Below, piece after piece: positions 14,326 through 64,000 of a DNA stretch of 64,000 nt (positions are counted from its first letter, which is position 1; the number at the start of each line of letters is the position of its first letter). Position numbers and translations under genes: made by a program. The DNA lies in assembly GCA_016748015.1 (NCBI GenBank), contig JAAOMT010000742.1, positions 41,543-105,542 of the forward strand, in the 5' to 3' direction. This DNA comes from Geosiphon pyriformis uo1 (Eukaryota > Fungi > Glomeromycota). The notes beneath the pieces were generated by a model. It was not told the DNA's origin and searched no databases. It worked only from the letters and a program-made list of their open reading frames with translations.

Positions 14326-14331
14326 ACGCGT
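14326..14331. promoter_or_regulatory. MluI cell-cycle box (ACGCGT) about 40 nt upstream of the MCM3 ATG; second CGCG core at 14298-14301
   Basis: Exact ACGCGT in otherwise CpG-poor DNA, directly upstream of a replication-licensing gene. Confidence 0.55.
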
Positions 14332-14370
14332 TGTTGCTTGTTCATTCTACTTCTTTCAGTATCTGGCAAA

Positions 14371-19829: not shown

Positions 19830-20400
19830 TTAATAATTAAATATAATACACTAACAAATAACAAAAAAAAACAGAATAATATAATAATAAAAATAATAAA
19901 AAGATAATTTAACTTTAATAAATAAATTAAATTAAATTAATAAAAATTTAATATGTAAGATTAGTTTTATAAATATTTTAATTGCTATTTTTTTAAAAAA
20001 TAATAAGAAAATCTAAAAGTAGAAAAATAGTTTATATTATTAACAAAAAATAATATATTGATATAATTCTATGTTTTATATTAGCACTCTTAAAATTTAA
20101 TTTTAAGTATTAATTATATTTTTAACAAATTTTTATTTAATATATTTCACAAAAATTAACAATTATATAAATTAAAAAAAAACCAATAGAAAAACTAAAT
20201 TATTGTATAAATTTTTGCTTTAAATAATTTGAATTTTTACAGTTTTAAAAAATTTTACTTATATACTTTTAAAAAAAAATTAATAATTAAGTTAATAATA
20301 ATATTAATAATTATATTAACAACTATTTTTAAAAATAAGATAACTAATTAATAATATTAATAATTTAATACATATAATTAATTAAATTAAGCAGTTTTAT
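19830..20400 (-). mobile_element. Very decayed family E LTR relic
   Basis: Collinear with 27480-28200 (e.g. atctaaaagtagaaaaatagtttatattattaacaaaaaataatatattg vs tctaaaggtaaaaaataattcatattgtcaacaaaaaataatatact). Ends not resolved. Confidence 0.6.
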
Positions 20401-22272: not shown

Positions 22273-23178
22273 TATTATTACAGATTTTAGTTTTTTTTAA
22301 TGTTGTTAATACTGTTTTATTGTTAATTTTGTTATTAATAAAAATTGTTAAATTTTTAATAAGCTAATTTATTTTCAAAGTATTTTTTATATTTTTGAAC
22401 TATTTGTGTTATTAAATTTATAATAAAATAGCTAATTTATATATTAATTATTTTGTGTAGTTATTTTCTAGTAAAAATTAACTCTTTTACAGAAATTTTT
22501 AACTCTAAATTCTTTAATTATATATAATTACTTTATTATAAAAGTTAACAGATTTATAGAAAATTTTAACTAAAAATTACTCAATAAAATAAAAAAATTA
22601 AAAAAATTAAAAGAAATTAAAATAAAAAAAATATAAAAAAAAATGTTTTTTGTTTAGACTTAAAATTAATTAAGTAATTTCAAAATATTAGTTAAAATTT
22701 ATAAATTTTGTATAGTAATAATTATAAAAAAATTTATTGGTTTTAAAAATAGATTTTATTTGATTAATTTATAGTATTTAATTATCATCTTAAATTTAAA
22801 GTAAAATATATTTTTTAAAAAGAAAAACTCTTTTTTTATAATTTTGTATTTTTTTTGCTAATATTTTGGTAAACTAAAAGTATATTTTAATAAACTACAA
22901 GTTATTTTTATAAACTATTAATTATTTTAGTAAATTATTAAATATTTTAAATATTTTGGGGAATTTTTGAATGTTATATCATTCAAACTATTATATAATT
23001 TGAATATTATATTTAATTATATTTGTATATTATACAAATTAGATTATTAATTATATAGTAATATTTAATAATTTAATTAAATAATAAGTAACAATTTAAA
23101 ATAATATTTATTAATTAATAATAGAAATAATAAGAGTGATTTTATGTTAATTAATAATTTAATTTTCTATTAATAATA
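22273..23178 (-). mobile_element. Ancient solo LTR of family A (or close relative), extremely AT-decayed
   Basis: Collinear over its full length with 8989-9985. Termini TATTATTA...TAATAATA are TGTTACCA...TGGTAACA after C>T/G>A. Flanks TTGC/TTAC fit a decayed 4-bp TSD. Confidence 0.8.
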
Positions 23179-24114: not shown

Positions 24115-25607
24115 ATGGCACTCCAAATATTCTTTCACGCTTTATCTCACGATTTCTAGAGCTTATTGAATAGTCAGAATTTTTCTGATTTTAGTATTAT
24201 TGTTGGCGAAGCGCCTAATACTAGAACTTTTCATGTTCATTCTCAAATTTTAGCGGCAAAGATCCTCGTATTTTGCTATAGCACTCTCTGGTGATTAGGT
24301 TAAAAGAGAAAATAACAATATCGTCTTTTCTAAACCTAATATATCGCCAGATATTTTTGAAATGATTCTTCGGTGAGTAATTTTGTTTGCTTAATATTTC
24401 TATTCATGACTATTTAAATTTTTTTATTTTATCTAGATACATTTATAGTGGTGAAATATCTCTTAATGAACACAGACCACTTACAATCTTAGAATTGCTG
24501 ATTGCCACTGACGAGCTTATTCTAGAAAAACTTATTAATCACCTTGAAGATTATTTAATTGAACATCATGCGAAAGAGTTAGAAGAAAATTTTGCCACCT
24601 TTCATGAAACATTCTTCATCCATCATTCGTTCAAAAAGCTACAAAAGTTCTGCACCGAAATAGCTGTCAACAATCCGGCTGCAGTCTTTAACTCTCAAGA
24701 TTTTACCTCCCTTAATAAAAATGCTCCTTGCTCAATTTTATCCCGTGATGACCTAAATATGGATGAAAGTGAAATATTGGAAAAGATTATAGAATGGGGA
24801 GTCGCTAAATTAAGCAATGGGATTCAATTGGAAAAAGTTCTTAATTGGACAGATGAAAACTTTGAAGCTTTTAAGGAATCTATTGGAGAACTTCTACCTT
24901 TAATCCGGTTCTTTAACATTTCTTCAGTTGACTATTATTATAAAGTAAAGCCATTTGCGAGAATTTTACCTGGAACCTTATATGAAGATCTTTTACACCA
25001 TTATCTAGTACCAGGGAGTCATCAAAAATCTGTTGACGCTCAGCCATTACGGGTTTCACGATCAAATTTTGATTCAAAGCTTCTCCAATCGCATAATATA
25101 AATCAGCTTGATCATTGGATTCAGGGCAAAGACGAAAATAATTCTTTTGAAAACCGACTTGAAAATGATTTTAAATTACTACTTCGAGGCAGTCGAGACG
25201 GATTCTCACCAAATGATTTTCATCGGTTATGTGATAACAAAGGAGCAACTGTAATCAAAGTCAAAGGGATTGGTCAATTTATTGGCGGCTATAACCCAGA
25301 ATCTTGGCATTTTCGTTGGGATTGGATAGATGGAGAGGGAAGTTTTATTTTTTCCCTTGAAGATGGCAAAGCTCAAAATGCCAAACTTAGCAATTTAGTT
25401 AGCAAAAATGGACCTTTTTGTCATAAAGAGTTCGGACCCCAATTTGGCACTTAAAGTATTCGAACCCAGAGCAGTAATTTTCAATCTATTCCATGCAGTT
25501 GTAAAAAGGAAACAAATTATGGGCACGTTATAATACCTGGGTCAGAAAATATAGCGGTAGAATTTTTTTTTGATGATTATGAGGTTTTTCAAATCATCAA
25601 AAATTAA
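24115..25607 (+). pseudogene. BTB/POZ-BACK-TLDc domain protein pseudogene (intron 24373-24436)
   Basis: BTB: SDFSIIVGEAPNTRTFHVHSQIL, KPNISPDIFEMILRYIYSG. BACK: ILSRDDLNMDESEI..IIEWG. TLDc: FKLLLRGSRDGFS..FHRLCDNKGAT, IGGYNP, DDYEVFQI. Stops at 24157, 24296 and 25452, plus a +1 frameshift near 24259. Confidence 0.88.
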
Positions 25608-27461: not shown

Positions 27462-28233
27462 TATTATAAATTGGAGTAACAAGCTAACAGATAACAAAAT
27501 AAAACAGAATTTTATAATGATAGAAATAATCAAAAAGGAATTTAACTTTAAAAAACAAATTGAATTAGTATAAATTCAATATGTGAGATCAGTTTCATAA
27601 AAATCTCAGTTGCTATTTTTTCTAAAAGATAACAAAATAATCTAAAGGTAAAAAAATAATTCATATTGTCAACAAAAAATAATATACTAATCTAATTTTA
27701 TGTCTTATATTAATGCTCTTAAAATTTAATATCAGATATTAATTGTATTTTTTAGTAATATTTATTCAATAATTTTTAAAACTAATAATTATATATAAAT
27801 ACCAACAAATAATTTTTTATTACAAAGATATTTAAATACTTAAAGAAAATTGAAAAAAAATTAAGTAAATTGGAAAAAATTAAATATTTTCGAAACAATT
27901 TTTATTACTTTGATTTATGTATGTTTTATATATTTGAACATGCTTTTTTAAAGCTAAGAGATATATTGCTTATATATAACTATTCAAAATAGTTAATAAC
28001 CAGATTAATAATTAAATAAATAATTAAGTTAATAATTAGATCAATGATCAAATTATTAATTAAGTCAATAATCAAGTCAATAATCAGGTCAATATTTAGG
28101 TTAATAGTTAAATCAATAACCAGATTATTAATTAGGTTATTGATTATTTTTTAAAAATAAAGTGGTTAATTGCATAATATTAATAACTAATATATATAAT
28201 AATTAATAAAAACTATGATTTTTAATCATAATA
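27462..28233 (-). repeat. 3' LTR of family E element with 12-bp tandem array (~27990-28145)
   Basis: Inverted homologue of 30692-31428; unit approximately CAAGTCAATAAT repeated about 12 times. Confidence 0.75.
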
Positions 28234-43600: not shown

Positions 43601-44436
43601 AAAAAATAATGAACTACAAGCAACCACCTTCACAGAAAAAACAGATAATAATTAACATGTTTTATACTTAATAAAACCAAAAAAAAAACCACTTTATATT
43701 TTACTCAAATACAAGAACTACAAAAAAAAGCTTTTCTTTATAAAAGCTTGAATATTATTCAAAAAAACTACTATATATATACTTGCTACTACTGCAAAGC
43801 ATACTATTGAGAATGCTTTAATTACTTAAAACAACAAGAAAAGTAAAACAATAAATTATGTCTTACTTGTGGAAAAACACTATTTAATAAAGGAATATAG
43901 AATAATATTTCTGGTTAAAAAAGAATATGTAATATATTATGCTAATACATAATTCTTATAAGCAACTAGATAAGCAGAGAAATGTTTTTTAATATTGTAT
44001 AGAACAAAATTTTTTTGTTTGGATAGTTATTTACATAATAAAAATAAAATCTGGAGAATAACAAGTATTAAAGTTAAAAACACTTTACTTAATAAAATAT
44101 TAATAATTAAAAACAACTTACCAAAACTCATTAAAACTATTTTTATTCTAAATTTAGACAGCTTTGTTGACATTTTGAGTGATCCAGAACAATTTTATAA
44201 ATACTACCAAAATTTGGCACTTATTAGAAAAGAGCAAAAACAGTATTTAGAATAATAAAATACCAAATTCTGTAAACATTGCTTAATTTTCAGTAACTTC
44301 AAATATTGAAATAATTGTAACCTTATTTTTAATTTATAATCATGTATAATTTATTCAATTTCTAAAAAAAAGAACCAATTAGTAAGTGCACTTTAGAATT
44401 AAAATTGAAATTTAATTGTGATTTAAACTTTGATGA
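37674..44436 (+). mobile_element. Old family B-like Gypsy element B1 (5' LTR, gag, PR, Cys-rich domain; continuation displaced by B2)
   Basis: 5' LTR 37674-40777 (split by the ORF1-only LINE), ending TGTAATA then PBS TTTGGTGCTCTTTG. Gag (KLEKFTGKKDNTQV, ELKANYLQAINLVMN) and protease collinear with 51300-55500. Confidence 0.85.
37965..40253 (+). mobile_element. Non-autonomous LINE derivative encoding only ORF1 (decayed, 38007-40122), with poly(A) and 13-bp TSD
   Basis: TSD AACAATACTT(T/C)TT at 37952-37964 and 40254-40266. RRM-like segments (QYVVVYFEKLDSA, KAKLVNLSFGCTAF) and CCHC knuckle CFRCQKMDHLAVNC (~39455-39496). Stop at 40120-22, then a LINE-type 3' UTR and A-tail. Confidence 0.82.
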
Positions 44437-45119
44437 TGTTATAAGTGATTATTTGGGGTCTTAAAGCAAATAACAAACCTTTAACTTGGTGCTCAATTAA
44501 TATGATGTTAGTTCCTAGAAGTTAACTGTATTTGAAGGTTTTGGTTGAGTTCTTTATATAATAAACAGAGATTTCAATGTGATTTTTTTTAAATAGTGTT
44601 CCCAATATTAACTCATGGGTTAAGTAGTTGTTGTCTGTTGCTTCTCAGAATTGTAATTCCATCAATTTTTTTCTCAACATAGTGGCTGGCAATCTTCTAG
44701 TAAGTTATCCTTAAATTTGAATATCTACCCTTATTCCTGGGTCTTTTACCAGTGCTATATTCTGATGTCAATAACTCAGCACTTTAATTTTTTAATCAAT
44801 TAGTACACAACTAAAAATAACAAAACAAAAAAAAAGAAAATAAAAGAAAATAAAAAGATAAGCCAAGACAATGAATATTAGTATTTCATCAATAACCACA
44901 ATCAAGAGCTATTGTTTCAGTATGGTTAAGTATTTAATTACTATCAACATGAAGTGTTGATAATAGGGAGTAGATTTGAAATATTAAATAATTATTTATT
45001 AATATTTGTAATGTGAACAGTTGCTTAAATCAAAGCTAAAACTTCTTTTGGTCTGTTTTTTTTGCTTCTAATGCTACTGCTATATATACCTAATTTATGT
45101 TCTACAAGATTGTTTACAT

Positions 45120-45262
45120 TCTTAAGCAATATGCTATGATTTCTTAAGCAATGTTCACATAGCTAAGCAATATGCTTTAATTTCTAATATTATTCCATAT
45201 TGCTAAGCAATGTGCCATAATTTTTGACATTACTTCATATTGCTGAGCAATGTGCTTATATG
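45120..45262. repeat. B2-specific U3 array with palindromic core ATTGCT-N-AGCAAT
   Basis: catattgctaagcaatgtgc, catattgctgagcaatgtgc, catagctaagcaatatgc and two cttaagcaat half-sites. Confidence 0.8.
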
Positions 45263-45334
45263 CTAACTACTATTCCTTTATTGGTCTACTATTTTCTATC
45301 TCTGTTTTTTTATAAGTAACATTATCTTCTCCTT

Positions 45335-45969
45335 TTAATATTAAGCTCCATCAAAATTCTTATTTTGAATTATATCAAATATTTTTTTTTCAAGTAGCAT
45401 TTGTTCTACTCTACTCTTTATTTCTTCAATTTGTGAGTTATTTATTCTTCACCATTGGTTGATAGTTATTGTTTCTATGTCAGAATGTAACAATATTTTT
45501 GGGTAGTTTTGAAATATAATATGTAGTCAATAAATAGTTCTAATGTATAGTGTCAAGTTTGTTTTCTTTCCAATAATATCTTCAATGTTCTGGATTATCT
45601 TTTAATTGAAGATTCTCTTGGATTTGTCAAGATATAACTTCTAAATATTTACTTTTTGTTCCAATTAATAGTAGCAGTATGATATTAGAAATTAGTCTAT
45701 TCATTGGTTTTAATTTTTTTTCATCAGTTTTTCTGTTGGAATGATGATGGTTATCTTTCCAAAAATGTTCTTTACTTTCTCTACTATTTTATCTGACCAG
45801 TTTATTGATTGTTTTTGTAGTCACTGGTATTGTGTACTTTTCCCTTTTTGTTTGGTGTTTTGATAACAAATTGGTTGGTTTTGATAATAATTTTCATGTT
45901 TACTTGCTGTTAATTTAAAGCCTGAAACAATTGTTGAGCTAAAATGTGAATATAGTCTGGTATTTCCGT
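45335..45969 (-). pseudogene. Accessory ORF3 of B2 (decayed)
   Basis: Manual translation: EIPDYIHILAQQLFQAL...KLYLDKSKRIF...TLYIRTIY*LHIIFQNYPKILLHSDIETITINQW*RINNSQIEEIKSRVEQMLLEKK; aligns to B3 ORF3. Confidence 0.7.
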
Positions 45970-48900
45970 TTTTTTTTGTTGCTTTTGTTGTATATACTGT
46001 GTTTTTATATATTCTTTTGGTTGTTTAATTTGATATGTTTGGTTCAATAACTATGATTGGTTCCAAATCTTGTGAAATTTCATTTGGTTAAACTAGTATT
46101 CTCTATGCTCTCAGTTGTAGAATATTACTGGTAAATGCTAATACTATGTTTTGATATAGTTTTAGTCAATCTCTATATACTGCTTTGGTTAAGATTTTGT
46201 TGTTCAACCTTAATTTATAAGCTTTATTTCCTAGAATTTCTTCTAATTGAAATGGTCCATTCTATTTGGGGTTAAATTTTCCACTTCATTGTTTTTCCAT
46301 TTTGGTATGATGTAAAAATACTTTGTCGCCAATCCTGAATTTGACTAATTTATTTGATAATTGGTTATTGTGTCTTTTTTTTTGTTTTTTTTGTGACTTT
46401 TGAATGTTATTAGCTGCTTTTTGTCATTTATTTTCTAGTGTCTTCATTAAGTCATATGTTTTTTTTAACAATGTTCTTTAAAAATTCTCTTCTGTTATTA
46501 GTTCTGTTAAATATGTTTTGACTTCTATCTCAACTGGTAATGTTGCTGTTCTATTGTATACTAATTTAAATAATGTTGCTTGTATAGTGTCTTGCTTTAT
46601 TGTTTGGTAAGCAAATAATACTAATAGTATGAACAAATCTCATTCATTCTGGTTTTTTTGGCTGATTTTAGCAATTGCTTCACACAATGTTCTGTTAAAT
46701 CTTTCAACTAATCTATTTATTTGTGAGTAGTATAATAATGATAATGGTCTTTTTATCTTAAATCTTTAACTTAATTTTGTTAATGTTCTATTCACAAAGT
46801 AAGTTTCTTGATTTGATAATAGTTTTTTTAAACATCTATGTCGACAGATCAAATCTTGATGAATGAATTTGGCAATGGATTCTGTATCTGCTTTTTGAAT
46901 GGCTTTTGCTTCTGGTCATTTTGTGAGATAATTCATGGCTACTACAATATATTTGTTGTCTTTGCTAATTATTGTTAATGGTCTGATTAAGTTAATTCCA
47001 ATGTAATTAAATAGTTGTTCTACTTTGATTGGTCTTAACAGTTTATTGGATCTTGTTTTTCCTCTTCTCTAATAAGCATCACAATTTTGAACATATTGGA
47101 TAATATTGGAATATATTGATAGCCAATAATATTTTTTTTTGATTCTTTCCATGGTTGCTTTTTTGTGAAAATGTTCTACTGTTGAATCTAAGTGCATGTT
47201 GAATAATATTGTCTCTTTCTCTGGTTCTGTAATTATTCTAATTGGTTAATCTGGATTTTTTTTGTTTTTTTTGGTAAAATATATTTTGATGGTTGATAAA
47301 ATATTTTGATTGTTGTTTTATGTTGTTTTGTTCCTTTTGAGATAATTTTCGTTGAACAATTGTGTATTTATGTAATATTAAAGTTGTTAGTATTTTTCTA
47401 TATTTATCTTTTGTTATATTTTTTTGGGTAAAATGTTTTTAAATTTGTTTCATTCGTTATAAACCATTGGCATTTTCATTTTTTTTTCCTTTTTTGTAAT
47501 GTACTGTATAATTAAATGATAAAAGTTCTATTTTCTATCTGGCATAACAATTATTTCTAAATTTTTGCTTCTAAATTAAAGTCAATCCTTTATGATTAGT
47601 GTATACATCAAACTTTTAACTTAAGTATTTTTTCTATTTTATAACTGCCCAATAGATAGCTAAGTGTTTTAATATTAGAGTTTTATAGTTCTTTTCAGCT
47701 GGACTTAAGCTTTTATTGGCATAAGCTACTAGGTGTTCTTGTTCATCTGGTCTTTTTTAAGATAATACTGTTCCTAATGCTTGACCAGATGCATTTGTTG
47801 TGATTATGAATGGCTTGCTATAATCTGGATAGATCAATACTGAAGCTTGAATAAGCTTTCTTCTTAATATATCAAAAGCTTTTTGCTAAGTTTCTGTCTA
47901 TTCATATCTGGTGTTTTTGTTTAGAGCTGGTATAATAGCTGAGCCAGTTTGGAAAAGTCTTTGATAAAACAATAGTAGTAATCCACAAATCCTAAGAATA
48001 CTCATAGTTCCGTCAAGTTGGTAAGTACTGGAAAGTTCTTAACTATCTCAATTTTATTTGAATTTATTTTGATTCCATTTTTGCTCACATTATGTTCCAA
48101 AGAAATACTTAGTTGTATTTAATTTTAATCTGGCTCTTCTTAGTCTTTCAAATACTTGTTGAAGATAGTGTAAATGATCATCAAATATTTTGGAGAACAT
48201 ATTGGTGTTATTTAGATACACAACTACTGATTTTCATAGCAGTCTAGTATAGACAATTTCCATAAGTCATTGAAATGTGGCTGGAACATTCATCAAGCCA
48301 AATGGCATAATCTCAAATTCAAAATTTTTTTCTTGAATCATAAAAGCCATTTTCTTTTTGTTTTTTGAATTTATGGCTACTTGTCAGTAACTACTATCTA
48401 AATCTAAAGTTGAGAACCATTTTTTTCTTCTAAAAGTGTCAAACAGCTCTTGGATCTTTGGAGTTGAGTAGCTATCTCCTTTTGTTACTTCATTTAGTTT
48501 CTGGTAATTTACACAAAAGCAGATTTTTCTATTTTTTTTATGAACTAGTACCACTGATGATGACCATAAGCTTATTAATAGCTGAATTAGCCCATTGTTA
48601 AGCATTTGATTGATTTCTTAATGAATGATTTTATGGCTGGCTGGTGGTATTCTGTATGCTCTTTGTTTAATTGGTATTGCATTTTTAGTCTTAATCTGAT
48701 GCTGAATTATGTCAATTCTGCCAAATTCATTTTTGCTGGCAAAGATATTATTAAAGTTGTTGAGTAATATTTTGAGCTACATATGTTGTAATAAGTCTAG
48801 ATTTTCTAAGTTTATCTGTTCCAATTGTTTTAGTTGAAGCAGATAACATTCTTCTCGTTCATATATTGTTTGAGATGTAATATCTACATATTCACACAGT

Positions 48901-51900
48901 TATGAAAAGTCTAGAATAGTGTTTGGCAGTTGGTTTTTAATTTCAGTGGTTAAATATCCAATAGTAGTTTTTTCTAGTATCTTGATAGTGTTTTCCATGT
49001 TGTTATAAATAGAAATTTTAATGTGACTATGGTTCTTGGCTGGTAGGTGTAGATTGATTAATTCAATCTCTTCTGATTTACAAAGTGTTGCTTCCATCTC
49101 AAAAATCTGAATCTGATTTTTTACTTTTCTCTCTATGACTAACATGTACTGGTCATATGGTGGAATAGAAATTGATTGACTGGTGAAAATAATTTCTCTT
49201 TTGTCAACAATTTTTTTTTCTGTTATATTAACTGATATATCTATTCTATCCATTGATTTAAATCTCTGTATTCCTCTTGCTGTTATTCTTAATTCTTCCC
49301 TGTTTTTCACTGATACTAATTGAGTTATTTTAACCAGAAACAGAAATATTGCCTGTGCTATTTTTTTGTCTGGCTCTATAATGTAGGCTTTTTCTGAATT
49401 ATTTTATAGCATTGCAATAATATTTTCTACATATCTTGTGTTAATTATTTTTTCTTTGATGTTGATTTTTTTTTGCTAAGCTACTCTTAGATGCTAGTTG
49501 AACTATTGTTGTTGCTGAGATTTTTAGTGCTATTTTAAGATCAATGCAAGTGCATGAATGTGGTTTCAATTTGATGGCATCTTTTTCTGGATATTTTAGA
49601 TCAAACTTTGCATTCATATTATGTGCACATTCAGATATAATGCCTTCATTATTATCACTGAACCATTTCAAGATCTGCTTCTTGGTAAAATTAGGGAGTG
49701 CAATGTATTGTTCAGGGTTTAAATCTAAGTCTGAATCATTGTTGTTGTCATTGCTAATTTGCATAAAGCTGGAACTATTGTTTTTGTTGTTATCATTGTT
49801 AAAGTTTGAATTGGAATTAAAAGTTAATTCCAATTCTAATGCATAGCTGCTAATTGGTTTTTTCTTTTTCTGGATTGTGTAGATCATGTGTGGTGGTGGA
49901 TTGTAAATAAAATTACACTCATTACAATATTAGAAGTTACAGGGAATCAAACAATAGTTACATAATTGTGTGTTTATTTCTTTCAATCATTGCTCTTGTT
50001 TTTTTTGAATGGGTGCTAATTCTTGGTAGTGTTTGTGGAATTGTTCTGGGTCTATAGGCTTTAGGATAATATCCGGGTTTGGGCCTTAGTCAAGTTCTAT
50101 AGGTTTTGGTGGGTTGTTTTTGATCATTCTTATTTCTTCTGGTGATGCTTCTTTGATTTTGGCAAGTGCTATTCACCAGATTTTGTTGTCATTGTGTTGA
50201 CAACTATTCAGATGTTTTACTGTTTTTCTCCAAACAGCTTCTATGGAAGTCTCTTTTTTACTCAATCATTAATTAAAATCATGTATTAACATGATTTATT
50301 ACAGGTTCTTTCTCATCCAGAAATGTTGTTCCATATTCCTTTGTCTAATAGGGTTTCTTCACAAGCAAAACAAAGTTTGTTGTCCTATTTTTCTTACTTC
50401 TTTGATCTTTTAAAGTGTTCTAAGATGCATGGGCAGCAGTAGAATTTGGTTGTCATAGAGTATTTTTCATTGTCGCTGTTATTCATAGAATATAAAAAGT
50501 ATAGCAGCATATAAATTAGCCAATCAGAAGTAGTCATAGTAAATGTGGAATTCCAGAATTCCTCTCAAAAGAATTGCAAAATTCCAAGAATTTCAGGATT
50601 CTCATACAAAGAATCACAGGATTCCAGAATTCTAAAATTTTTCTTAGAAGAATTGCAGAATTTCTGGTGTGAAGAATTAAAGAATTGAGAAATCTCAATT
50701 ATGTATATATAGTAGTAGTGTTAGAAGTAAAAAAAACAAACCTCTCAGTTTAGATTTAGTCTAAGCAACTTTTCCATTCATCAATAAATAATTATTCACT
50801 ATCTCAATCTACTCTCCACTATTAACACTTTATGTTGATAGTAATTGATACTTAACTACACTGAAACAATAGCTCTTGATCACAGCTATTGACAGAATAC
50901 TAATTATTATTGCCTTGGCTTATTTTTTTATTCCTTATTTCTTGTATTTTTTTTTTTTTTTTATTGTTATTTACTAATTAATTAAAAAATTAAGCACTGA
51001 GATAAAAACGTCATAAAAACTGGTAAAAGACCTGTGAAACAAAAATAAAATACTCATAAATTTGAGAATAACTTACCAGGAGAATTACTGACTACCATGT
51101 TGAAAAAAAAATTTGACAGAATTGCGATTCTGGGAGGCTACTGAAACAACTATTAAATCTCTGTCTATTATACAAAAAACTCTACAACAAAACCTTCAGA
51201 TCAACAAAACCTTCAGATACCAACACCAAATATCAATCAAGCACCAAGTTATGGGTTTGTTATTTGATTTAAGATCCCAAATAATCACCTGTAACATTTG
51301 GTGCTCTCTGTAAGGTATAATTCTACAGAAAACCAGTACCAACTACAACCATTCCAAAAGTAACAGAAGCAAAAATAATAGGGACAAACCATTTAGGATT
51401 TGCCAAATCCTTATTCCAATAGTACAGCCAACAATTAGGATTAAACAACAACTATTATCTAATGGAATCAGTCTTTAATTTTTATGTCAATAAAAGAATC
51501 AAAGATTTCCTAAGAGTACCAGTTGATATTGAGTCAGCAAGGAAGAATTTTTACATGGAATTAATTCAACACACCAGCTTACCACGAAATCATAGTTTCA
51601 TGCCAATCATCAGGAAAATTAATCAAACCATTAAAAGATATACACAACAACAATTCCCAATTACTTATACAGACAAAGAAAAAAAAAAACTACAAATACC
51701 AACAGTAATACCAAAAAAGATCCAACCACCCACTTGGAAGAAAACTAGAGTTAAATTGCCAACAAACTCATCATACCACTATATCCTCAGAAACACCATT
51801 AACATTTCATCAACAAGTGCATTCACATCAAATACAACATCAACATTTGGATGACTCTTATTTCAAAGTAAACAAAAGAAAGCAGAATTACTAGAAACCT

Positions 51901-52600
51901 ACAGCAATTATTTTGAAAGATTTAAATTGCAATTGCCAATGCCATCAAAATTCTGATTACTGTCACCTCAACTAAATTTTGGAAACGTGAATCCCTGGGA
52001 GATAATGGAATCAGAAAAGGAGGAAGAAGAAGAAACTGAAAATTGAAAATTCACTTACCAAAACCCAATTCTGAAAAACTTGAACATTGAAACCCCAAAC
52101 TTTCAGACTCAGCAAAATCAAAATTTAGAAAATCCGGAAGTTGAAACTCCGAATTTTTAAACTTAGCAAAATTGGAATGATTGAAACCCCAATATTAATA
52201 ATTAACAACTCTTACCTTCAGTAATCGTCATAAATTCACCACCAGTTGCTTCACAACAACAGCCATCACCACAACCCCAAATTTAATTACCACTTTCACC
52301 ACCACAACAACTAAATGTAAATCCAATAGTCTATGCTCCAATAGTAAAACTTGAGAAATTCACAAAAAAAAAGAACAACACACAAGTATAACTGAATGAT
52401 ATGAAAAAAACTATCACAGCCAACAGATGGAATAATGCCAGAGCATTTCAAGCCATCCCCTATTTCTTATAAGATACTGCCAACTCATGATATCAAAGTT
52501 TAGCTGCCAAATCTTAAACATTTTAAGAATTTAAAGTTGTATTTTTAGGATATTTCAGTAATAATAACAGTATTAATTGTTTAGCCAACATCTTTACCAC

Positions 52601-53995
52601 TGTTATCAGGTGAAAGCTATGAATTTGTAACTTCTTAGCAATGACAATTGCTTTCACCTGGAATACACACATTACCATGATTATGCTACTGACTGTAGCA
52701 TATCATGGGTGTATGAACTATTTCAGTGAATGGGAGAGCAGAAAAAAGTACGTAATAATGTCATTAAAAGTGAAAGAAAGTATTGTCATTATTATTTGTT
52801 TTTGGGCAAGAACCAGTCTTAGGTATTTTAAAGGGAAAAGAGAAATCACATCTCTTTATATGTATCAGAAATGCAACCAGCAACAAGGAGAAACCAAAAC
52901 TACTTAAGAAAATTGTAACCAGAATTCTTTCAATTAGTCATTGAAAGGGTGTGGTATTCAAATGCCTGCTTTGAAAATGAAGTTATAGGAATTATAAAGG
53001 ATTGTAAGAGTAAAACATAACTGAAATAGATTTAACTTTTTATTGTTGAGACCACTCTCTAACAACATGATATTTTATTACTTATTTTTATATTTAATAA
53101 CTTGTTCGGTAAAACAAGACTTAATGTAAAATGGTAATAACACATAATTTGAAAGATCAGAAATAATAGAAAGCTTGATGATTTTTGTTTTAGCAAATAC
53201 ATAAGAAGTTATAAATAATATGATTTCAAATGGTGATAAGGAATATGGAAAGGCATACTTGAGATTGTGATAACAAGTATTTAGAGCATAGAAAAAAGAA
53301 AAAGAGAGTAGAGGAAAGGACTAACTGCTTACTATAAAACTATAGTAAAGAGTTGGCTCAGTGTTGAACTGATACTTTTCTGAACTGACAGAGAGGCTGT
53401 ATATATAGCTAAATTACATCAAATCTACATACTATATTAGAACTATTTAAAATACATCCATTATTTATATACATTTAATTAATCAATTTATAATGAGCTT
53501 ACTCGGCATGTTATTTTCTCAGAGCTAGTGATTTTTAGATGATCAGATTTAGATGGCTGAATCTAAAACATTAATTGTTAATCAATGATACCAATTGTAA
53601 TTATGATCAACGTAATCAGAAGTAAATTAATTAATTACATTTCTTGATAACTATTTTTAATCATTGATCGCAGATCTGGAATGTTAGATTGTTCTAATAA
53701 GAATATATGAGAATACAAAACCTGTTGTTATCTAATTACATGTGACAATCATTTATTTCCATTGGTGTTTCTTAGTTTGCCAAGATTTTTTTGTATTCAA
53801 CTTAATTAACTGTTGGATTGTGTCATATTTCATTGTTGTAATTGGATTGATTGCTGATCATTTATTTTCAGATTGCTGGCTGATTTTGTTGATTAAATGC
53901 GATAATATAGGTCTTTTTTTCATGATTTTAATGTTAATTTCTATTGTATGTGTTGTAATTTTTGCATTGAAAAGTGTGAAAATTTTTTGATAACA
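52601..53995 (-). mobile_element. Solo LTR of a separate family (D), 1395 bp, inserted in B3 gag
   Basis: 8-bp inverted termini TGTTATCA...TGATAACA; 4-bp TSD CCAC (52597-600, 53996-999). Removal restores gag F-T-T-I-K-Q. TATA (~53400) and AATAAA (~53040) lie on the minus strand. Confidence 0.92.
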
Positions 53996-55768
53996 CCACA
54001 ATTAAACAAAGAGAAATAGAAGCAGTTATCACTTACTTGGAATGTTTTCACAAGAACTTGTACCAAATCCAAGCAATCCAAGCTGACTACTTTACAGCAC
54101 CTCATATTCTAAACCAGTTCATCTATGGACTGCATAGTAGCATTCTTTAATGCATATGTCCAATGCATCCAGCAGATCTTCAAGCCACTGTTACAAATGC
54201 CAGAGACTTTGAAACAGCTAAACTTAAAGCTAACCATGCTTAAACCATCAATCTAGTGATGAATGGAACATCTGAATTGGATTCTAAGTTAAAACAATTC
54301 AGTAATTCCATCAACCAAAAATTAGAGGAATACTTAGCTAACAATCAAGCAATCTATCAACCTCTACAATAATGTAATAATCAAGAAAATGTGAATTGTT
54401 TTCAGAATCAGTTGTGTCTATCATTCTTGACCAATTAACAGTGGCAGTAGAAGACATGTGTTTGCCACTACTGTAGTAAACAAGAACATTTGAAGATTAA
54501 CTGCAGGTTAAAAATAGACAACCAATAATCAAGAAATCAATATTAAAACCCCAATTGCTGGTTTCCAACTCCGAGTTATCAATCCAATCCAGCACCATAT
54601 TAAGTGACTTACCTGCCAATGATGCAACAGCCAATATATCAACCACCCATATATCAACTTCCAGTTTATTAACCACCAGTAATATATCAAGCATTGCAGC
54701 CACAAATAATTTATCAAACACCTGCAGTTCAAACACTACTATTAAACCCAGCTCAAATAACATCAGGAAATCCCAGATCAAGAGTTACTTAGAACTGAAG
54801 ATTGGCAATAGTTGTTTACCAACCAATTTCCAGTTCATCCAACCAGCCATCAAGATTACAACAGCAGAGTTTAAGAACCAGATATACTCAAAACCCGAGT
54901 TCCCAGAACTATTTCAGTCTTTTGATTATCCCAGAAAATGTCTCACTCAACAACTTGGAGACAAACCAGAAATTACTTACTAACAACATACCACCAGCCA
55001 CCATCATAGAAAATAAGTTACTAGCAACTATATTTCCCTTCAAAATTAAAGAACTATCAACAACTCTTTTGTTCAGTAGAGCTGCACTTGAAGAAAAACC
55101 AATTACCACCATGTACACTAATGCCAAGTAGATGGCCATACTATCAAACTCATTCTTGATAGTGGGTTAACAGGCAGCATTATCACATAACAACTCATGA
55201 ACCAATTAGGTTGCCAAGTTGATTGTGCTACCAGTGTCAGAATAATAACAGCTGATAGAGCGACCAAGACTCCTATCAGCAAGATTGATAATTTTTCCTT
55301 TGAAGTAAATGATATTATTACTTCAATCAAAGTTTTGGTAATAGAGGTTATGCAGTACCAAGCACTAGTTGGTAATAACTAACTAGTCAAAACAAACACT
55401 GTATTTGACTAGAACATACAGGAATTACAGCTTAGTCAAAACAGTCAACACATGTGAGTACTTGCCATGTGTGGACACTTCAAACCCATCATCACACCAT
55501 CAGCCCCACTTATCAAATTTGAGGAAGAAAAAAAAAATCTACTTGAGAAGTCTATCAAGTATCTTGGGCCAACAAAGACCACAACAAGCTACCACCAATA
55601 CTCTCTTGAAATGACAATGAAAAAAGAAAATGAAAAGAAGAACTTACCTAAAATGCTGACCAGACCTAGAAAACTGACAATGATCAAGACAAACTAACAA
55701 CAACTTGGGAGTAGAAAAAAGACAATTATGAAGAAAAAAAAAAAAAAAAAAAAAAACCAACACCAACT

Positions 55769-55788
55769 NNNNNNNNNNNNNNNNNNNN
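55769..55788. other. Assembly gap (20 N) hiding the 5' part of A3 and part of B3
   Basis: Run of N; family B sequence to the left, family A integrase end to the right. Confidence 1.
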
Positions 55789-57873
55789 TAAAGTTGGAAA
55801 TAAAGTTCTTTTACACAGAACTAAAGCTGAAAAACAATGGAGTGAAAAATTTGAAAATAAATGGGATGGACCATTCTTTATTCATAAAATTCTAGGCAAT
55901 AGATCATATAAGCTAAGACTTGATGACAAAATCCTAGCAAAAGTTGCACATGGAGATCATTTGAAACACTATAATTCCAGAAACAATTCGAACCATTAAT
56001 TCCACAAATTGGCACACATTCCCCTTTAATCAATTCTGAAGATATTTCCTGGAATTTAGAACCAATAGTTGTCATTGAACAACCTCCCAACTTAAACACT
56101 TAAATTAAATTTATTATTATAGTTATCTTCTTATAATTTAGAAACAATCTCACAAAAACAAAACAAAAATAACATAAAAACCCATGCACCAAAAATAATT
56201 TTCTTTTATTTCAAATTGCTTATAATGACTATTTCTCAAAACATTTAACAATTATCCCAAAAACTAATGTTAGCTTTAAAAACAATACCCGAATTATCTA
56301 TTACTGTTACTGGAAACCACATTAATTATACCCAAACAGAAATAGTCACAAATTTAGCCCCAAATTCACGAAAATATCACTCATATAAGAAGAACATAAG
56401 AAGTTATTCTGGAATTCACTTGCCAAAACTTTTAAAGCTTGCTTTAAGAGAAAATTTAATGTTCATTCTTATTAGTATTCCACCAAATGCTACTATTCAA
56501 CAAAAACTTCAACTGTATCTTAATGAAGAAAACCACAACTATACTCCAATATATAGATATTTCTATATTGGAAAAACACTTTATGAGTGAAAACTAGAGT
56601 TTACAGCAGCAAATCTCACAAAAGAAGCTATTCGGAAACAACTCCACAACAAATTCAAGATGACAGCTGGACCTACAAACAGTCATTATAAACTAAGAGC
56701 TGCTCTTAGACTTTATGACCTATTTCATATCTGTGAAAACGTCCTACAAAACCCAATTTTACAATCTTTAAAGATTCAATATATTGGAAAGCTCACAGAA
56801 CTGAAATTTCAACAATTTTCAGACCAAATTTCTTTGATAATTTTGGATTATTATCTGGAAATTACAGACAGTACTTGGACTTCGACGGAGCTCAGTCTTG
56901 AGGAGGAGGTTATGTTACCAGATGAAATTAGAGATATTGTTTAGCATAAAATTACTCTTATAAATCTTATCATTAATTAGCATATATTATCATTTCAAAT
57001 TATTACTTATTACATTAGCAAAATATCCGAAATTATCATTTAATTAATAACCCAATTGGTACATAACACAAATGTAATCTAATTGCGATGATCAATTATG
57101 CAATACCCCAAACTATGTAACATTCAAAAAGTTCGCCAAAATTTGTAAGAAATTTGCCGAAATATCTAATAGTTCACAGAAATAACTTGTAGTTTGCCAA
57201 AATATATCTTTAGTTCAGCAAAATTATAGAAAATACCAAAGTTCAAGTTCATAAAATAGTGTTATGACAAGTTGTATAAAAGAAGAGCTTCTCTTTTCAA
57301 GGAAATATATCTTACTTTAGATTTATCTCTTAAAACTGTTCCTACACACACAAAAAGAAATAAATATCAAATAATTCAAAAAACCAAATTCTTTAATTAT
57401 TGTACTTGGAAAATCCCCAAAACCCAACTAATATTTCGAAATTAATTAGCTACCAATTTCAGTAAACTGTTAGTGACTCCAGGTCTGGATAGAAAACGTT
57501 TCCCTTGACAGAATTCTATTTTTTTTACATTTCTTTTATTTTTCTTTTATTTTCTGATTACAATCATTAAGGTAGCCTACAGACAAGATTCCTGTAAAAA
57601 AGTTGACTTTCACAGCAAAGTAACTACACATTTTTAGTGAGCTTCCAGACAAGCAGTTCCTGAGAAAGAGTTGACGTTTATTACAACATAACTACATAAA
57701 GTAACTGGCAAGGAATTGGCCATTTCACTTATAAGCCCAGCAGTTCAAATTATAGGAGATAATTTGAAGATAAATTCAGTTACTGGAGGTTCAACCACAT
57801 CCAGAAAACATGAATTCACAGCAAACAGGCATCAACAACATTTAAGAAAAGAGACCAAAAACCTCTGGTAACA
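55789..57873 (+). mobile_element. 3' part of family A element A3 (IN end, ORF3, PPT, 3' LTR 56913-57873) inserted in the Cys-rich region of a family B pol
   Basis: Reverse-complement match to 784-2240. LTR has 9-bp inverted termini TGTTACCAG...CTGGTAACA; PPT GAGGAGGAGGTTA at 56900-56912. Family B pol resumes at 57874. Confidence 0.93.
56225..56944 (+). pseudogene. Accessory ORF3 of A3
   Basis: ORFs 56267-56590 and 56660-56944 are in one frame separated by a TGA; closely similar to A1 ORF3. Confidence 0.8.
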
Positions 57874-58224
57874 GCACCCACCAGAGAATAATAGAAAGAG
57901 CATTTAGCACAGTTAAACACTCAATTATGTGACCACTGTTTAATTCCATATAACTTTCAATATTGTAATGAGTGTAACCTTATTTACAACCCACCGATCT
58001 GCATAATCTACACAATCTCAGAAGAAAAAGAACCAATTAGCAACTGCACATCAGAATCAGAATCAAATTTCAATCCTGACTCAAACCTTGACAATAATGA
58101 CGAAAATAATGGTTCCAGTTCTGTTCAAAATAGCAATAACAATGACAATGATTCTAACTCAGATTCAAACTCCAATTCAAACTACGAACAATATATTATG
58201 CTCTCTGACCTCACCAAGGAGCAA

Positions 58225-58650
58225 GAACTAAAATGGTTCAGCAACAATAATGAAGGTATCATGCCAGAATGTGCACATGATACTGATGCAGAGTTTGATC
58301 TGAGATATCCTAGAAAAGATGCCATCAAATTGGAACTACATTTACGCACTTGTATTGATCTGAAAATAACATTGGAAATTCTAGCAACCACAATGGTTCA
58401 ACTAGCATCTAGAAGTAGTTTAGCAAAAAAAGAAATTAACATCAGAGGAAGAATAATTAATACAGAATATGTAAGAAATATCATTGTTATGCTACAAAAC
58501 AATTCAGAAAAGACCTATGTAATAGAGTTAAACAAAAAAATAATGCAGGCAATATTTCTGCCTTTGGTCAAAATAGCTCAGTTAGTATCAGTGAGAAATA
58601 GGAAAGAATTAGGAATAACAGCAAGAGGGATACAGGGATTTAGATCAACA
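58225..58650 (+). pseudogene. dUTPase domain within Pol of B3
   Basis: AHDTDAEFDL, LASRSSLA, GRIINTEYVRNI, MQAIF, RGIQGFRST. Confidence 0.88.
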
Positions 58651-61600
58651 GGTAGAGTAGATATACCAATTAATATAATGGAAAAAGAGATTATTGACAA
58701 GGGAAAAATTATCTCCACTAGTTAACCAATTTCCATTCCACCATATAACCAGTATATGGTAATTATAGAAAGGAAAGTGAAGGATCAGAACCAGATTTTT
58801 GAGACAGAAGCAGCATGTTGTGGATCAGGAGAAATTGGACTCATCAATTTCCACATACCAGCCAGGAACTATAGCTGCATCAAAATTCCCATTTATAATA
58901 ACACTGGAAAAGTTATAGAGATACCAGAAGAAACCATCATAAGACATTTAACTACTAAAATAGAGGACCAACCACCAAACCCCATTCCAGACTTTCCACA
59001 GCTTTGTGGATATGTTGACATCACATCACAAATGATATATAAACAAAATGAATATTATTTGCTCCAACCAGAACAATTGGAACAAATGAACATAGAAAAA
59101 TTAGATCCACTACAATGTATGCAGCTCAAAATGTTACTTAACAATTTCAATGACATCTTTGCCAGCAAAAATAAATTTGGCAAAACTAACATCATCCAAC
59201 ATTAAATCAAGACTAGAGATACAATGCCAATTAAACAGAGAGCATACAGATTACTACCAGCTAGCCATGAGATTATTCATCAAGAAATCAATTAGATGCT
59301 TGACAACAGACTAATTTAGTCATCAATAAGTCTATGGTCATCACCAGTAGTACTAGTCCATAAAAAAAATAAAAAAATCTGCTTTTGTGTGGATTACCAA
59401 AAACTGAATAGAGTAACAAAAGAAGACAGCTATCTAATCCCAAAGATCCAAGAATTTTTTAATGCTTTAAAAGAAAAGAAATGATTTTCAATATTAGACT
59501 TAGACAGTGGTTACTGGCAAGTAGCCATAAAACCAGAAGACAAAGAGAAAACAGCTTTTACAACTTGAGAAGAAAACTTTGAATTTGAAGTAATGCCATT
59601 TGGCTTGATGAATGCTCTAGCCACTTTCCAGTGACTTATGGAAATTGTTTATACTGGGCTACTATGAAAATCAGTAGTTATATACTTGGATGACACTAAC
59701 GTGTTCTCAAAAACATTTGACTATTATCTGCATCATTTCCAACAAGTGTTTGAAAGACTAAGAAGAGTCGAATTAAAGCTAAATACAACCAAATATTTCT
59801 TTGGGAAAACTGAACTCAAGTTTTTGGAACATGTTGTAAGTAAAAATAGAATCAAAACGGATCCAGACAAGATTGAAATTGTCAAGAACTTTCTAGTACC
59901 AAATAATCTTACAGAATTGTGAACATTCTTGGAATTTGCTGGATATTACTGCCACTTTATCAAGAACTTTTCTAAAATAGCTCAATCACTACACCAACTT
60001 CAAACAAAGAACACTAAATATGAATGGACAAAAATTTAGCAAGAAGCTTTTGATACATTAAGAAGAAAGCTTATTCAAGCTTTAGTATTAATCTATTCAG
60101 ATTATAGCAAGCCATTTATAATCACAACTGATGCATCCAGTTAAGCATTGGGAGCCATATTATCTTAGAAAAGACTGGACGGACAAGAACATTCAGTAGC
60201 TTATGCAAGTAGAAGCTTAAGTCCAGCTAAAAAGAACTATGAAACTCCAGCACTGGAATACTTAGCTATTTATTGGGCTGTCACCAAATAGAAAAAATAC
60301 TTGAGCCAAAAGTTTGATGTGTATACTGACCACAAAGTATTGACTTCAATTTAGAAGTAAGAATTTGGAGATAATTGTCATGCAAGATAAAAAATAGCAC
60401 TATCACCATATATATTTACAGTACATTATAAAAAGAGAAACGACAATAGAAATGCTGATGGTTTGTCATGAATGAGACAAATCTAAAAACATTTCAAACC
60501 CAAAAATATAACAAAACATAAATATACAAAAATATCAACAACTCCAATATTACATAAATACCCAATTGTTCAAGGAGAAATTATCTCATAAGAATAAAAA
60601 AACATAAAACAAGAATCAAAATATTTTATCAATCATTTAAATATACTTTACCAAAAGAACAAAAAAAATTCAGATAAACCAACCAGAGTAATCACAGAAC
60701 CAGAAAAAAAAACAATATTGTTTAACATGCACTCAGATCCAACAGCAAGACATTTTTATAAAGAAACAACAATAGAAAGAACCAGAAAAAGATATTATTG
60801 GCCATCAATATATTCAGACATTATTTAATATGTTCAAAATTGTGATGCTTGTCAAAGAAAAAGAGGAACAAAACCCAATGAATCATTGAGACCAATCAAA
60901 GTAGAACAACCATTTGATCACATTGGAATTGACTTAGTCAGACTATTAACAATTACCAACAGAGACAACAGATATATTGCAGTAGTCATGAATTATCTCA
61001 CAAAATGGCCAGAAACAAAAGCCATTCAAAGAGCAGATGCAGAATTTGTTGTCAAATTTGTCTATCAAGACTTGATCTGTTAACACAGATGTCTAAAAAA
61101 ATTGCTATTGGATCAAATAACTCACTTTGTGAATAGAACATTAGCAGAATTAAGTCAAAAATTTGGGATAAAAAGACCATTATCATCACTATATTATTCA
61201 CAAACAAATAAATTAGTTAAAAAGTTTAATAGAATATTGTGTAAAGCTATTGCCAAAATTAGCCAAAAAAACCAGGACAAATGAAATTTAATTATATCAT
61301 TTGTATTATTTGCTTATCAGACAATAAAAGACACTATACAAGCAACACCATTCAAATTAGTATATGGTAGAACAGCAACATTACCAGTTGAGATAGAACT
61401 CAAGACATATCCAACAGAACCAATAACAGAAGAGAATTTTCAAAGAATATTATTGAAAAAAACATATAACTTAATGAAAACACTAGAAAACACATGGCGA
61501 AAAGCAACTGATAACATCTAAAAAGCACAAAAAAAACAAAAAAAAAGACACGATAACCAACTACCAGAGAAACCAGTTGAATTCAAGATCAGAACAAAGT

Positions 61601-61947
61601 ACTTCTATATTGTACTAAAGCAGAAAAACAATAGAGTGGAAAATTTGATCCCAAATGAGATAGACCATTTCACATAAAAGAAATTCTTGGAAATAGAGCT
61701 TATAAATTAAGATTGAACAACAAAATCTTAACCAAAGCAGCACATAGTGATTGACTGAAATAATATCATCACATAGCATTATTATCTACCAGTAATATTC
61801 CACAATTAGGAGTATAGAAAATACTAGTCAAACCAGATGAGATTCTACAAGATCTAGAATCAATCATAATTATTGAACCAAACACATAAATTGAACAATC
61901 AAAAGAGTATATAAAAACATAGTATACATGACAGAAGACAGTAGAAA

Positions 61948-62576
61948 ATGGAAATTACTGACAGCATACACTCATTAGCACAACAATTTTTTCAATTGAT
62001 ACAACAACAAAAGATAGAAATTACAATTAACCAACAAACTATCCAATATACAAACACCAGAAAAAAACCATAAGACAAAATACAGAGAAAAACAGAAAAC
62101 ACTATAGACAAAATAATTGCAAAAGTGAAACTAGCAATGGAAACACAACCAAAAGTAACCCAATATTAAGAGTTGACTATAGAAATTTGGAATTGGTGGA
62201 TATAACAATTTCCAAAAAACTTTTGTTATTTTTATTTAGGACAACACTTGAACATTCAGAACTTGTACATGGATAAAACAAAATAATTATTTGACACAAC
62301 AATATTGCAGCAACTGGAACAATTTGGGGAAAAAAACAATTTAACCACACAAGCAAAAACCATTTACTGGCTACACACTGGATTTCAAGATCGACCAAAA
62401 ATCTTACTCAATCCAAAAATGGACTTCATTACCATTAATCAAATGAGAAAAATAACAAATATGTAATTTGAAGACTTATAAAACAAAATAGAACAAATAA
62501 TTCTTGAAAAAAAGTTCAAGAAATACTCAAAGATGAAAATTTAGAATTAAGAGATCTCAATAAAGCTCAATATTAA
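61948..62576 (+). pseudogene. Accessory ORF3 of B3 (decayed, ~210 codons)
   Basis: Manual translation: MEITDSIHSLAQQFFQLIQQQKIEITINQQTIQYT...NFCYFYLGQHL...TTQAKTIYWLHTGFQDRPKILLNPKMDFITINQMRKITNM*FEDL*NKIEQIILEKK. Confidence 0.75.
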
Positions 62577-63168
62577 AAAGAAGGGAATATTGTTACTCAT
62601 AGAATATAGAAAGTATAGTAGCATATAAATTAGCCAATCAAAAGTAGCTTGAATAAATATAAAATTCCAGAATTCTTCTTAAAGAAATTGTAGGATTCTA
62701 GAAATTTCAGGATTTTTATATAAGGAATCACAGGATTTCAGGTGTGAAGAATTGAAAAATTGAGAAATCTCAATTATGTATATATAGCAATAGTATTAAA
62801 AGTAAAAAAAACAGACTTCTTAATTTAAATTTAGTCTAAGCAATCTTTCCATTCATCAATAAATAATTATTTACTATCTCAATCCACTCTTCACTATCAA
62901 CACTTCATGTTGATAGTAATTAATACTTAACCACACTAAAACAATAGCTCTTGATCACAACTATTGATGAAATACTAACTATTATTGCCTTGGCTTATTT
63001 TCTTATTCCTTATTTCTTCTATTTTTATTTTTTTTCTTTATTGTTATTTACTAATTGATTAAAAGATTAAGCGCTGAGATAAAAACGTTATAAGAACTGG
63101 TAAAAGATCCATAAAACAAGGGTAGAACACTTATAGATTTGAAGATAGCTTACCAAAAAGATTACTGG

Positions 63169-64000
63169 TGTTACAGATGATTTTTTGGGGTATCGAGTGA
63201 ATAACAAACCCATAACTTGGTGCTCAAAGTGATTAGTGCAGATGATAATCTGAAGGTATTTTATCTGAAGGTTTTTTAATCGAGTTATTTGTATAATAGA
63301 CAGAGATTCAATGGTAACAGTTTATTAGTAGTTTTCTGAAACCGTAGTTTCATCGATTGCTTGTTCAGCTTGATGGTTGATGATTTTCTTGGTACAATAT
63401 CCTCCATAAGTGTATACCAGTGCTGTTTCTTGACGTCTGTTCCTCTGTAAGTCCTCCAAGAGTAAGTATTGTTTAAGCAAGTTTATTTCTCCATAAGTTC
63501 TCCAAGAGTAAATCTTTTAATCAAGTTAGTAGACAACAAAAAAAATAAAAAAAAGATAAAAGAGAAAATAAGAAATAAGCCAAGACAATTTGCAAATTAG
63601 TATTCTGTCAATAGCCATGATCAAAAGCTATTGTTCCAGTATGATTAAGTATCAGTTATTATCAACATAAAGTGTTGATAGTGAAGAATGAATTTGATCT
63701 AGTGAATAATTATTTATTTGAGAATTGTGGTAACTAAGCTAAAGATTCTTGGTGTCAATTTTGTCTTTTCTGCTTCTAATGCTACTGCTATATATACATA
63801 TTTGAGATTCCTCAATTTTTTAATTTTTTGCAACAGAAATCCTGGGATTCCTAGAATCCTGCGATTTCTGATAAAAGGAATCCTGGAATTCTGGAATCTT
63901 GCAATTTCTTACTGGAGAATCTTGAAATTCCTGGAATCCTGCAATTCCTCTAAGAGGAATCCTGGAATTCTATATTTACTACGTCTACTTCTGATTGGCT
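63169..64000 (-). mobile_element. Family B LTR (B4), antisense insertion in the 3' LTR of B3; truncated by window end; ~40-bp GGAATCC/GGAATTCC array at 63835-63972
   Basis: Begins TGTTACAGATGATTTTTTGGGG, the reverse complement of the family B LTR end; collinear with 44437-45110 and with the reverse of 50500-51296. Confidence 0.9.

Follow-up and report, generated by a model that had tools for sequence, protein, structure and literature searches.

A third gene and its neighbouring U3 repeat array form a precisely bounded block in Ty3/Gypsy elements of Geosiphon pyriformis and plausibly act as lock and key

According to the available sections of PMC3798896, the foamy virus transactivator Tas, a protein of 209 aa in the feline virus, binds elements in the U3 as well as at an internal promoter. 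In Arabidopsis, VANDALs are DNA transposons whose VANC protein carries DUF1985/DUF287 and targets several non-coding regions (PMC5735166, in its accessible part), and the accessible text of an Arabidopsis TE-protein atlas names anti-silencing factors for DNA transposons (10.1101/2024.04.02.587720). LTR elements make up 41.2% of the G. pyriformis genome, with a similar expansion in Ambisporaceae (PMC11952901, as far as the available text goes). Here, we analysed a 64-kb stretch of this genome (hereafter the window), which carries nested, decayed LTR elements along with a few host genes (MCM, BTB/TLD proteins). In its elements a third gene, ORF3 (~210–240 aa), sits between integrase and polypurine tract. 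The ORF3 family is real and apparently undescribed, the block that ORF3 forms with the U3 is precisely bounded, and a lock-and-key function of the two is plausible as judged from the sequences. We found no earlier description of the family or of an ORF3-U3 cassette in the main text of mostly openly accessible full-text papers.

Elements and U3 arrays of the window

In the window elements dUTPase, reverse transcriptase (RT), integrase and an SH3 tail of the Tf2 kind follow one another as is usual for Ty3/Gypsy, and the elements are identified as Ty3/Gypsy by their LTRs, a polypurine tract and an RT upstream of an integrase with this tail. The segment 45120–45969 (minus strand) spans ORF3 and the U3 array of one of them, B2. 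The features are as follows:

48147–49671, minus strand: B2 dUTPase region and RT
46148–47002, minus strand: B2 integrase core, then SH3-like tail (transversions relative to B3 1.7%, up to 45962)
45335–45969, minus strand: B2 ORF3, dead copy of a 211-aa protein (stop at 45337–45335)
45322–45334, minus strand: B2 polypurine tract, directly after the ORF3 stop
44436–45321, minus strand: B2 3' LTR, starting TGTTAC at 45321, with CCAAT at 45284
45113–45276, minus strand: B2 U3 array, 40-bp period, four ATTGCT-N-AGCAAT palindromes
45082–45088, minus strand: B2 TATA box, where the divergent block ends on its 3' side (change-point fitted at 45088)
61948–62576, plus strand: B3 ORF3, dead copy with 6 stops and a frameshift near 62508 (database relatives ~200–211 aa)
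62591–63167, plus strand: B3 3' LTR, with a GGAATTCC/GGATTCC array before the TATA (62779)
50477–51297, plus strand: B4 5' LTR, with a B3-type array at ~50548–50698, then a gag-like frame
63169–64000, minus strand: further B-type LTR (ends with the window), with the best-kept GGAATTCC array (63838–63970) and a different U5
1059–1777, minus strand: A1 ORF3, 239-aa type, last codons overlapping polypurine tract and LTR start
454–568, minus strand: A1 U3 array, 20-bp units with TTCG-G-CGAA (A-type also at 9676–9769 and 57129–57203)
56225–56944, plus strand: A2 ORF3, one premature stop
27991–28146, minus strand: family E 12-bp array, ORF3 homology upstream not detected

A dUTPase domain lies upstream of RT in all three elements (4650–5768, 48699–49671 and 57895–59205). 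Host sequence includes an MCM helicase subunit gene in a single long frame (14326–16686) and a BTB/BACK/TLD gene (24381–25454). AT-rich DNA retains very decayed LTR relics at 22291–23176 and 19658–20386, of families A (20-bp units) and E (12-bp units), and in the A1 3' LTR (478–1088) a 306-bp unit, with the end of ORF3 and the U3 array inside it, is duplicated in tandem.

The initial annotation had told apart the U3 arrays of B2, of B3 and B4, and of A, and these proved real, type-specific and far above chance expectation. The B2 array consists of four CAYATTGCT-N-AGCAATRTG units at 45115, 45156, 45196 and 45236 (0.14 expected by chance), the GGATTCC/GGAATTCC type has seven matches spread over B3, B4 and the 63.8-kb LTR (0.17 expected), and 13 of the 14 TTCG-G-CGAA matches (0.09 expected) lie inside A LTRs, where the third array indeed stands beside a third ORF3 type of 239 aa. 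No U3 contained a foreign array motif with fewer than three mismatches when the types were cross-checked. The 40-bp periodicity was reached by 0/500 shuffles for B2, B4 and the 63.8-kb LTR and by 3/500 for B3, the 20/40-bp periodicity of A by 0/500. For family E, the 12-bp array stood (0/500 shuffles), while the ORF3 relic suspected beside it did not, its score being at the chance level, which 178 of 200 codon shuffles also reached.

Each B array is flanked by a host-type CCAAT box, common to all B LTRs, on one side and on the other by the TATA box, from which the last unit is ~25 bp away; the 20/40-bp spacing is a helical-turn spacing. The GGAATTCC array is kept in three LTRs, one of them with a different U5. 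Among the joints of other copies in the run X1 contigs, 14 of the 15 listed fall in the U3, so the number of array units varies among copies. The B2 array (45196–45254) and a B3-type array (63887–63950) have the pentamer ATTGC/GCAAT and the 40-bp period in common and may therefore descend from one unit.

A subfamily-specific repeat array upstream of the TATA box on a shared pol works like those of Tnt1 and Sirevirus, although the elements here are not copia. This opens a strong rival explanation, which could well be right even if we lean slightly away from it: the arrays would serve host transcription factors as enhancer sites and diversify through amplification of their units, and ORF3 would be a hitchhiking neighbour with a separate job. 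The host-type CCAAT box of all B LTRs fits it, and so does the strong E array without detectable ORF3, in a family that is badly decayed. In the accessible parts of the sources, Tnt1 groups differ in U3 with RNaseH fixed (PMC1838419), and Sirevirus elements have family-specific palindromic motifs upstream of the TATA even without an ENV-like gene (PMC2829016); such family-specific arrays in elements with no known self-encoded binder count against a self-encoded activator.

ORF3 and U3 differ between B2 and B3 as one block

B2 (minus strand) and B3 (plus strand) align over 5.4 kb at 76%. Their claimed likeness in pol and R/U5 was confirmed, with mostly ~80% identity in pol, where the differences in 100-column windows are nearly all transitions, and 79% identity downstream of the TATA. 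This near-exclusive presence of transitions in pol is the decay pattern after insertion; the A1 LTR pair differs by 69 transitions and 9 transversions. Between these regions ORF3 is only 53–65% identical, with many transversions (100-column windows), which is still a weak DNA alignment, so that the earlier statement that the two ORF3s align only as protein went too far. The U3 is 58% identical overall and below 50% in 100-column windows, and identity recovers after the TATA.

The initial annotation had suggested mapping breakpoints near the integrase end and the TATA box, and the fitted change-points fall there. On transversions alone, which decay seldom produces, the best-fitting pair of edges was 45962 and 45088 (log-likelihood gain 125), i.e. 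within three codons of the ORF3 start and at the TATA box, with transversion rates of 1.7% before, 22% inside and 7.3% after the block. At fourfold sites, transversions amounted to 8/129 in pol and 7/18 in ORF3 (p=4.5e-4) when all codon pairs fourfold in both copies were taken, and to 7/100 and 2/10 (p=0.19) in a stricter count whose numbers are too small to decide. Silent divergence is not raised by faster protein evolution, and the ancestry of ORF3 and U3 thus appears older than that of their flanks. Hence, of a cassette that was supposed to be either swappable or fast-evolving, the single bounded block and a synonymous divergence far above that of pol uphold the former, whereas fast protein evolution as the sole cause drops out. 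Most likely, to judge from these alignments, the block of ORF3 and U3 was exchanged as a whole between elements. Downstream of the TATA, B2, B3/B4 and the 63.8-kb LTR are about equidistant (6–8.5% transversions), and only B2 has a different array.

Such edges do not by themselves call for a functional link. In LTR reverse transcription, strand transfer at R and one switch at the integrase end would give them unaided, and template switches at these two places would carry ORF3 along with the U3 as the hitchhiking explanation has it, which weighs against a self-encoded activator. What this explanation leaves unaccounted for concerns the ~35 nt made up of the ORF3 end, polypurine tract and LTR start, which B2 and B3 still have in common: ORF3 and U3 could have come apart there, yet the block runs through this conserved stretch unbroken, in the one case at hand. 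Loose ends of other copies fell at the ORF3/U3 junction in 0 of the 6 listed (of 395), a sample that is no measure of linkage.

An unlikely third explanation makes ORF3 a helper associated with chromatin or with the particle, which would target integration, control copy number or handle RNA and would be in conflict with the host. Its types would be old balanced alleles on a homogenised pol, and its link to the U3 purely structural, because ORF3 ends at, or overlaps, the polypurine tract and the start of the LTR. In A and in the metagenome element L001 described below, the last ORF3 codons do run into both of these. The stop of the B2 and B3 genes comes before the polypurine tract and no overlap ties ORF3 to the U3, yet both differ together. 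Furthermore, there is no positive evidence for any such role.

The ORF3 family and its protein

The ORF3s of B2, B3 and A belong to one homologous family that can be aligned end to end. The types, at 19–42% identity, have all kept the reading frame, a pattern in the N-terminal part and an ORF3 end at the polypurine tract. The B2 copy has 11 premature stops, one frameshift near 45880–45889 and a mutated start codon, at whose position most other run X1 contigs have ATG (depth 13380/13634, a summed depth and not a copy number). The initial annotation had raised the question of purifying selection, and the answer is clear: transversions between the B2 and B3 ORF3s are more frequent at third (51/184) than at second positions (24/184; p=7e-4), so ORF3 was under purifying selection. 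What lies between integrase and 3' LTR is therefore a conserved sense ORF under such selection, that is, an additional ORF3. No ORF3 was detected upstream of the decayed LTR at 37.7 kb, and no ORF3 relatives were found in viral contigs or phages.

Intact relatives are present in public records. P0196, of the B2 type, is 60% identical to the B2 ORF3 over residues 31–211, 42% identical to P0125 (B3 type) and ~20% identical to A. All named relatives are G. pyriformis hypothetical proteins: for type A, 119 of 120 listed entries (of 202 in all; the remaining one is the window's own), 71/71 for B3 and 2/2 for B2. A profile search of 1.84 billion representatives yielded 120 proteins, and among the 20 looked up were five metagenome proteins. 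With the further Geosiphon-named types C (P0205, P0209) and D (P0226 and others), the Geosiphon proteome holds at least six ORF3 types. In a tree of 18 hand-chosen rows, B2, B3, D and A/A' came out as well-supported clades, C as a single row, and B2 as the sister of B3. The host-factor explanation does not account for a split into at least six deep types, under purifying selection, within one genome. Database lengths for the family are unreliable, since ORF3 is joined to LTR or gag sequence in many of the Geosiphon gene models (for example P0128, P0137 and P0205; in the window 44691–63167). Both B2 (45990–46010) and B3 (61900–61920) have a TATA-like stretch (TATATAAAAA) ~40 bp upstream of the ORF3 start, a candidate internal promoter.

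Four ORF3 types were seen together with their DNA (B2, B3, A and L001), and they adjoin four different arrays. L001 is a young metagenome element with RT-RNaseH, an integrase with one internal stop, an intact 230-aa ORF3 in the same position as in the window elements, a tract and an LTR start; its array of ~10-bp CTTAATT units (0/500 shuffles) is of low complexity. At L001:772–795 the RT-RNaseH stop codon is followed by integrase as a separate in-frame ORF with its own ATG, suggesting readthrough or separate initiation of integrase. A second metagenome contig, L002, has an integrase end and then an ORF3 running off the contig end. Integrase and ORF3 group the four elements identically (A with L001, B2 with B3), so most of the ORF3-U3 co-variation is plain shared descent, as the host-factor explanation would have it and to the detriment of a self-encoded activator; B2/B3 is the only pair that separates ORF3 and U3 from the pol phylogeny. 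ORF3 is more divergent than integrase in 6/6 pairs (identity 0.19–0.41 against 0.52–0.74), a faster divergence that a helper under host conflict would also show.

In both structure models (pLDDT 77 and 75, pTM 0.65 and 0.64), an N-terminal helix and hairpin, modelled with low confidence, are followed by a basic linker that is disordered and by a helical core of good confidence. Transmembrane segments usually exceed a hydropathy near 1.6; the top 19-residue values of 11 representatives ranged from 0.27 to 1.29, with no transmembrane stretch, and the protein is predicted to be soluble and helical. An Env-like identity of the errantivirus type was rejected, since no hydrophobic signal or transmembrane segment occurs in these 11 representatives. 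The basic linker is present in 9/11, and a [RKH]-X2-5-PY pattern, which we take to be PY-NLS-like, is found in the linker of 7/11 representatives and 41/86 A-type database copies and is missing in two metagenome proteins and in the B3 type. One Asn of the core, invariant in the 10/10 representatives covering the site, opens a helix; its first two turns vary with the type, and R148, L149, Y150 and F153 further along are conserved. Four B3-like sub-variants keep NL[ST]TQA[RK]AIY in that helix (28 of the 47 proteins covered the site). A type-variable helix suits a putative recognition helix, no proof though this is; the core has a net charge of -7 to +7 among the 11 representatives.

Pfam, PHROGs, NCBIfam and PDB sequences gave no convincing match, whether to a known DNA-binding family or to any other, and Foldseek returned nothing at E<=0.001 against the PDB (both models) or viral structures (one model). 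The best VIA-align Z scores (5.8 and 4.5) are in the range of common helical arrangements, and the CHD1 C-terminal domain (Z 5.7, rmsd 2.9, 80 aligned) was not accepted as a match. DUF1016_N (YhcG N-terminal) gave a Pfam E of 0.12 in 1/26 members, far under the cut-off, and an hhalign probability of 2–3%, with a score above 60/60 column shuffles and reached by 1/60 block shuffles; this faint likeness falls on the expected W-x-IG...N-L-x-x-M-R-x-F-Y core and is not significant. Matches to FtsQ and phrog_23683 (5/26 members each) involved only closely related A types and were treated as chance. In the ESM Atlas the whole protein was below recognition level; for the core alone, the two best clusters were unnamed Mucoromycota proteins (0.94 and 0.93), which we regard as a lead only.

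A possible private activation circuit and its known counterparts

We propose, at close to even confidence, that ORF3 is a self-specific activator or anti-silencer of the U3. ORF3, a conserved accessory gene, would encode a likely nuclear DNA-binding protein that binds the U3 palindromes of its own family and switches on its own LTR, and the helical core, through the helix after the invariant Asn with its type-variable start and conserved basic residue, may read the palindromes. Where one particle contains two different RNAs, the first-strand transfer at R, immediately downstream of the TATA, combined with another template switch where integrase ends, would carry ORF3 and U3 over as one, so that each pair could form a private activation circuit on a shared pol backbone. 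In this scheme we infer the exchange route, nuclear import, the binding of ORF3 to the U3, its specificity and its direction. The wider proposal, somewhat more tentative, is a sequence-specific LTR activator encoded by a fungal Ty3/Gypsy lineage itself. One genome would hold at least six orthogonal ORF3/U3 lock-and-key pairs, each exchanged in one piece onto a common pol, and the activator would be a Tas/VANC counterpart among retrotransposons, from a protein family without a named fold.

The self-activator reading draws on the observed gene with its fixed position, purifying selection, type-specific arrays and block edges, on the fourfold-site excess, the unbroken course of the block across the conserved ~35 nt (one case) and the four types with four arrays, and on the constant B3 helix motif alongside a constant GGAATTCC array as well as the soluble helical protein with its basic linker and PY pattern. 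Against it stand the missing match to a DNA-binding family, the single informative pair, the strong array of the badly decayed family E with no ORF3 detected, a core that is not uniformly basic and the lack of the PY pattern in the B3 type and two metagenome proteins. The same linkage evidence would also suit an operator-binding repressor by which ORF3, bound to its own array, limits the copy number of its own type, and the short distance of the last unit from the TATA is compatible with this; however, the arrays lie upstream of the TATA with no overlap, and with 202 and 71 relatives in the database the family is a very abundant one, which makes repression very unlikely. Array position is the one point that favours activation or anti-silencing over repression.

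If the self-activator reading is true, a type-specific, self-encoded activator would explain how several related families amplified independently in one silenced genome, an env-less fungal retrotransposon would have complex-retrovirus-like regulation, and natural orthogonal protein/palindrome pairs would be at hand, whose proteins can be taken intact from public databases. Should the rival reading hold instead, the conserved, unnamed ORF3 family and the precisely bounded ORF3-U3 exchange still stand.

Among described systems, ORF3 resembles foamy virus Tas in being a small, highly divergent protein encoded beside the 3' LTR (PMC3798896, available sections), and, as with Tas and Tax, its gene lies next to the U3. 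Unlike the foamy virus, the Geosiphon elements are Ty3/Gypsy without env. No Pfam, PDB or viral-fold match points to Tas/Tax homology, and motif scans of the window found no recurrence of the U3 palindromes upstream of ORF3, hence no Tas-like internal-promoter site of that motif. With VANDAL/VANC, ORF3 shares an accessory protein that diverges faster than the core enzyme and family-specific motifs in tandem repeats whose unit number varies among copies (PMC5735166, accessible part); unlike the VANC targets, the Geosiphon motifs are confined to the U3, and DUF1985/DUF287 are absent among the Pfam matches listed for ORF3 (18 and 26 members; 25 of 33 families listed for the 26). Modular U3s with palindromic repeats upstream of the TATA and a conserved pol are also known from Tnt1 (PMC1838419) and Sirevirus (PMC2829016), which are Ty1/copia and for which the accessible parts of these papers describe no self-encoded binder and no swap block from the start of a third gene. 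Bdelloid rotifer elements likewise have a family-specific third sense ORF after integrase in dUTPase-bearing lineages; in the available text these ORF3s are env-like, transmembrane, GDSL or DEDDy (PMC5408684), whereas that of Geosiphon is predicted to be soluble and helical and has no named family. By analogy, ORF3 would work like Tas or VANC while being, on present tests, a member of neither family.
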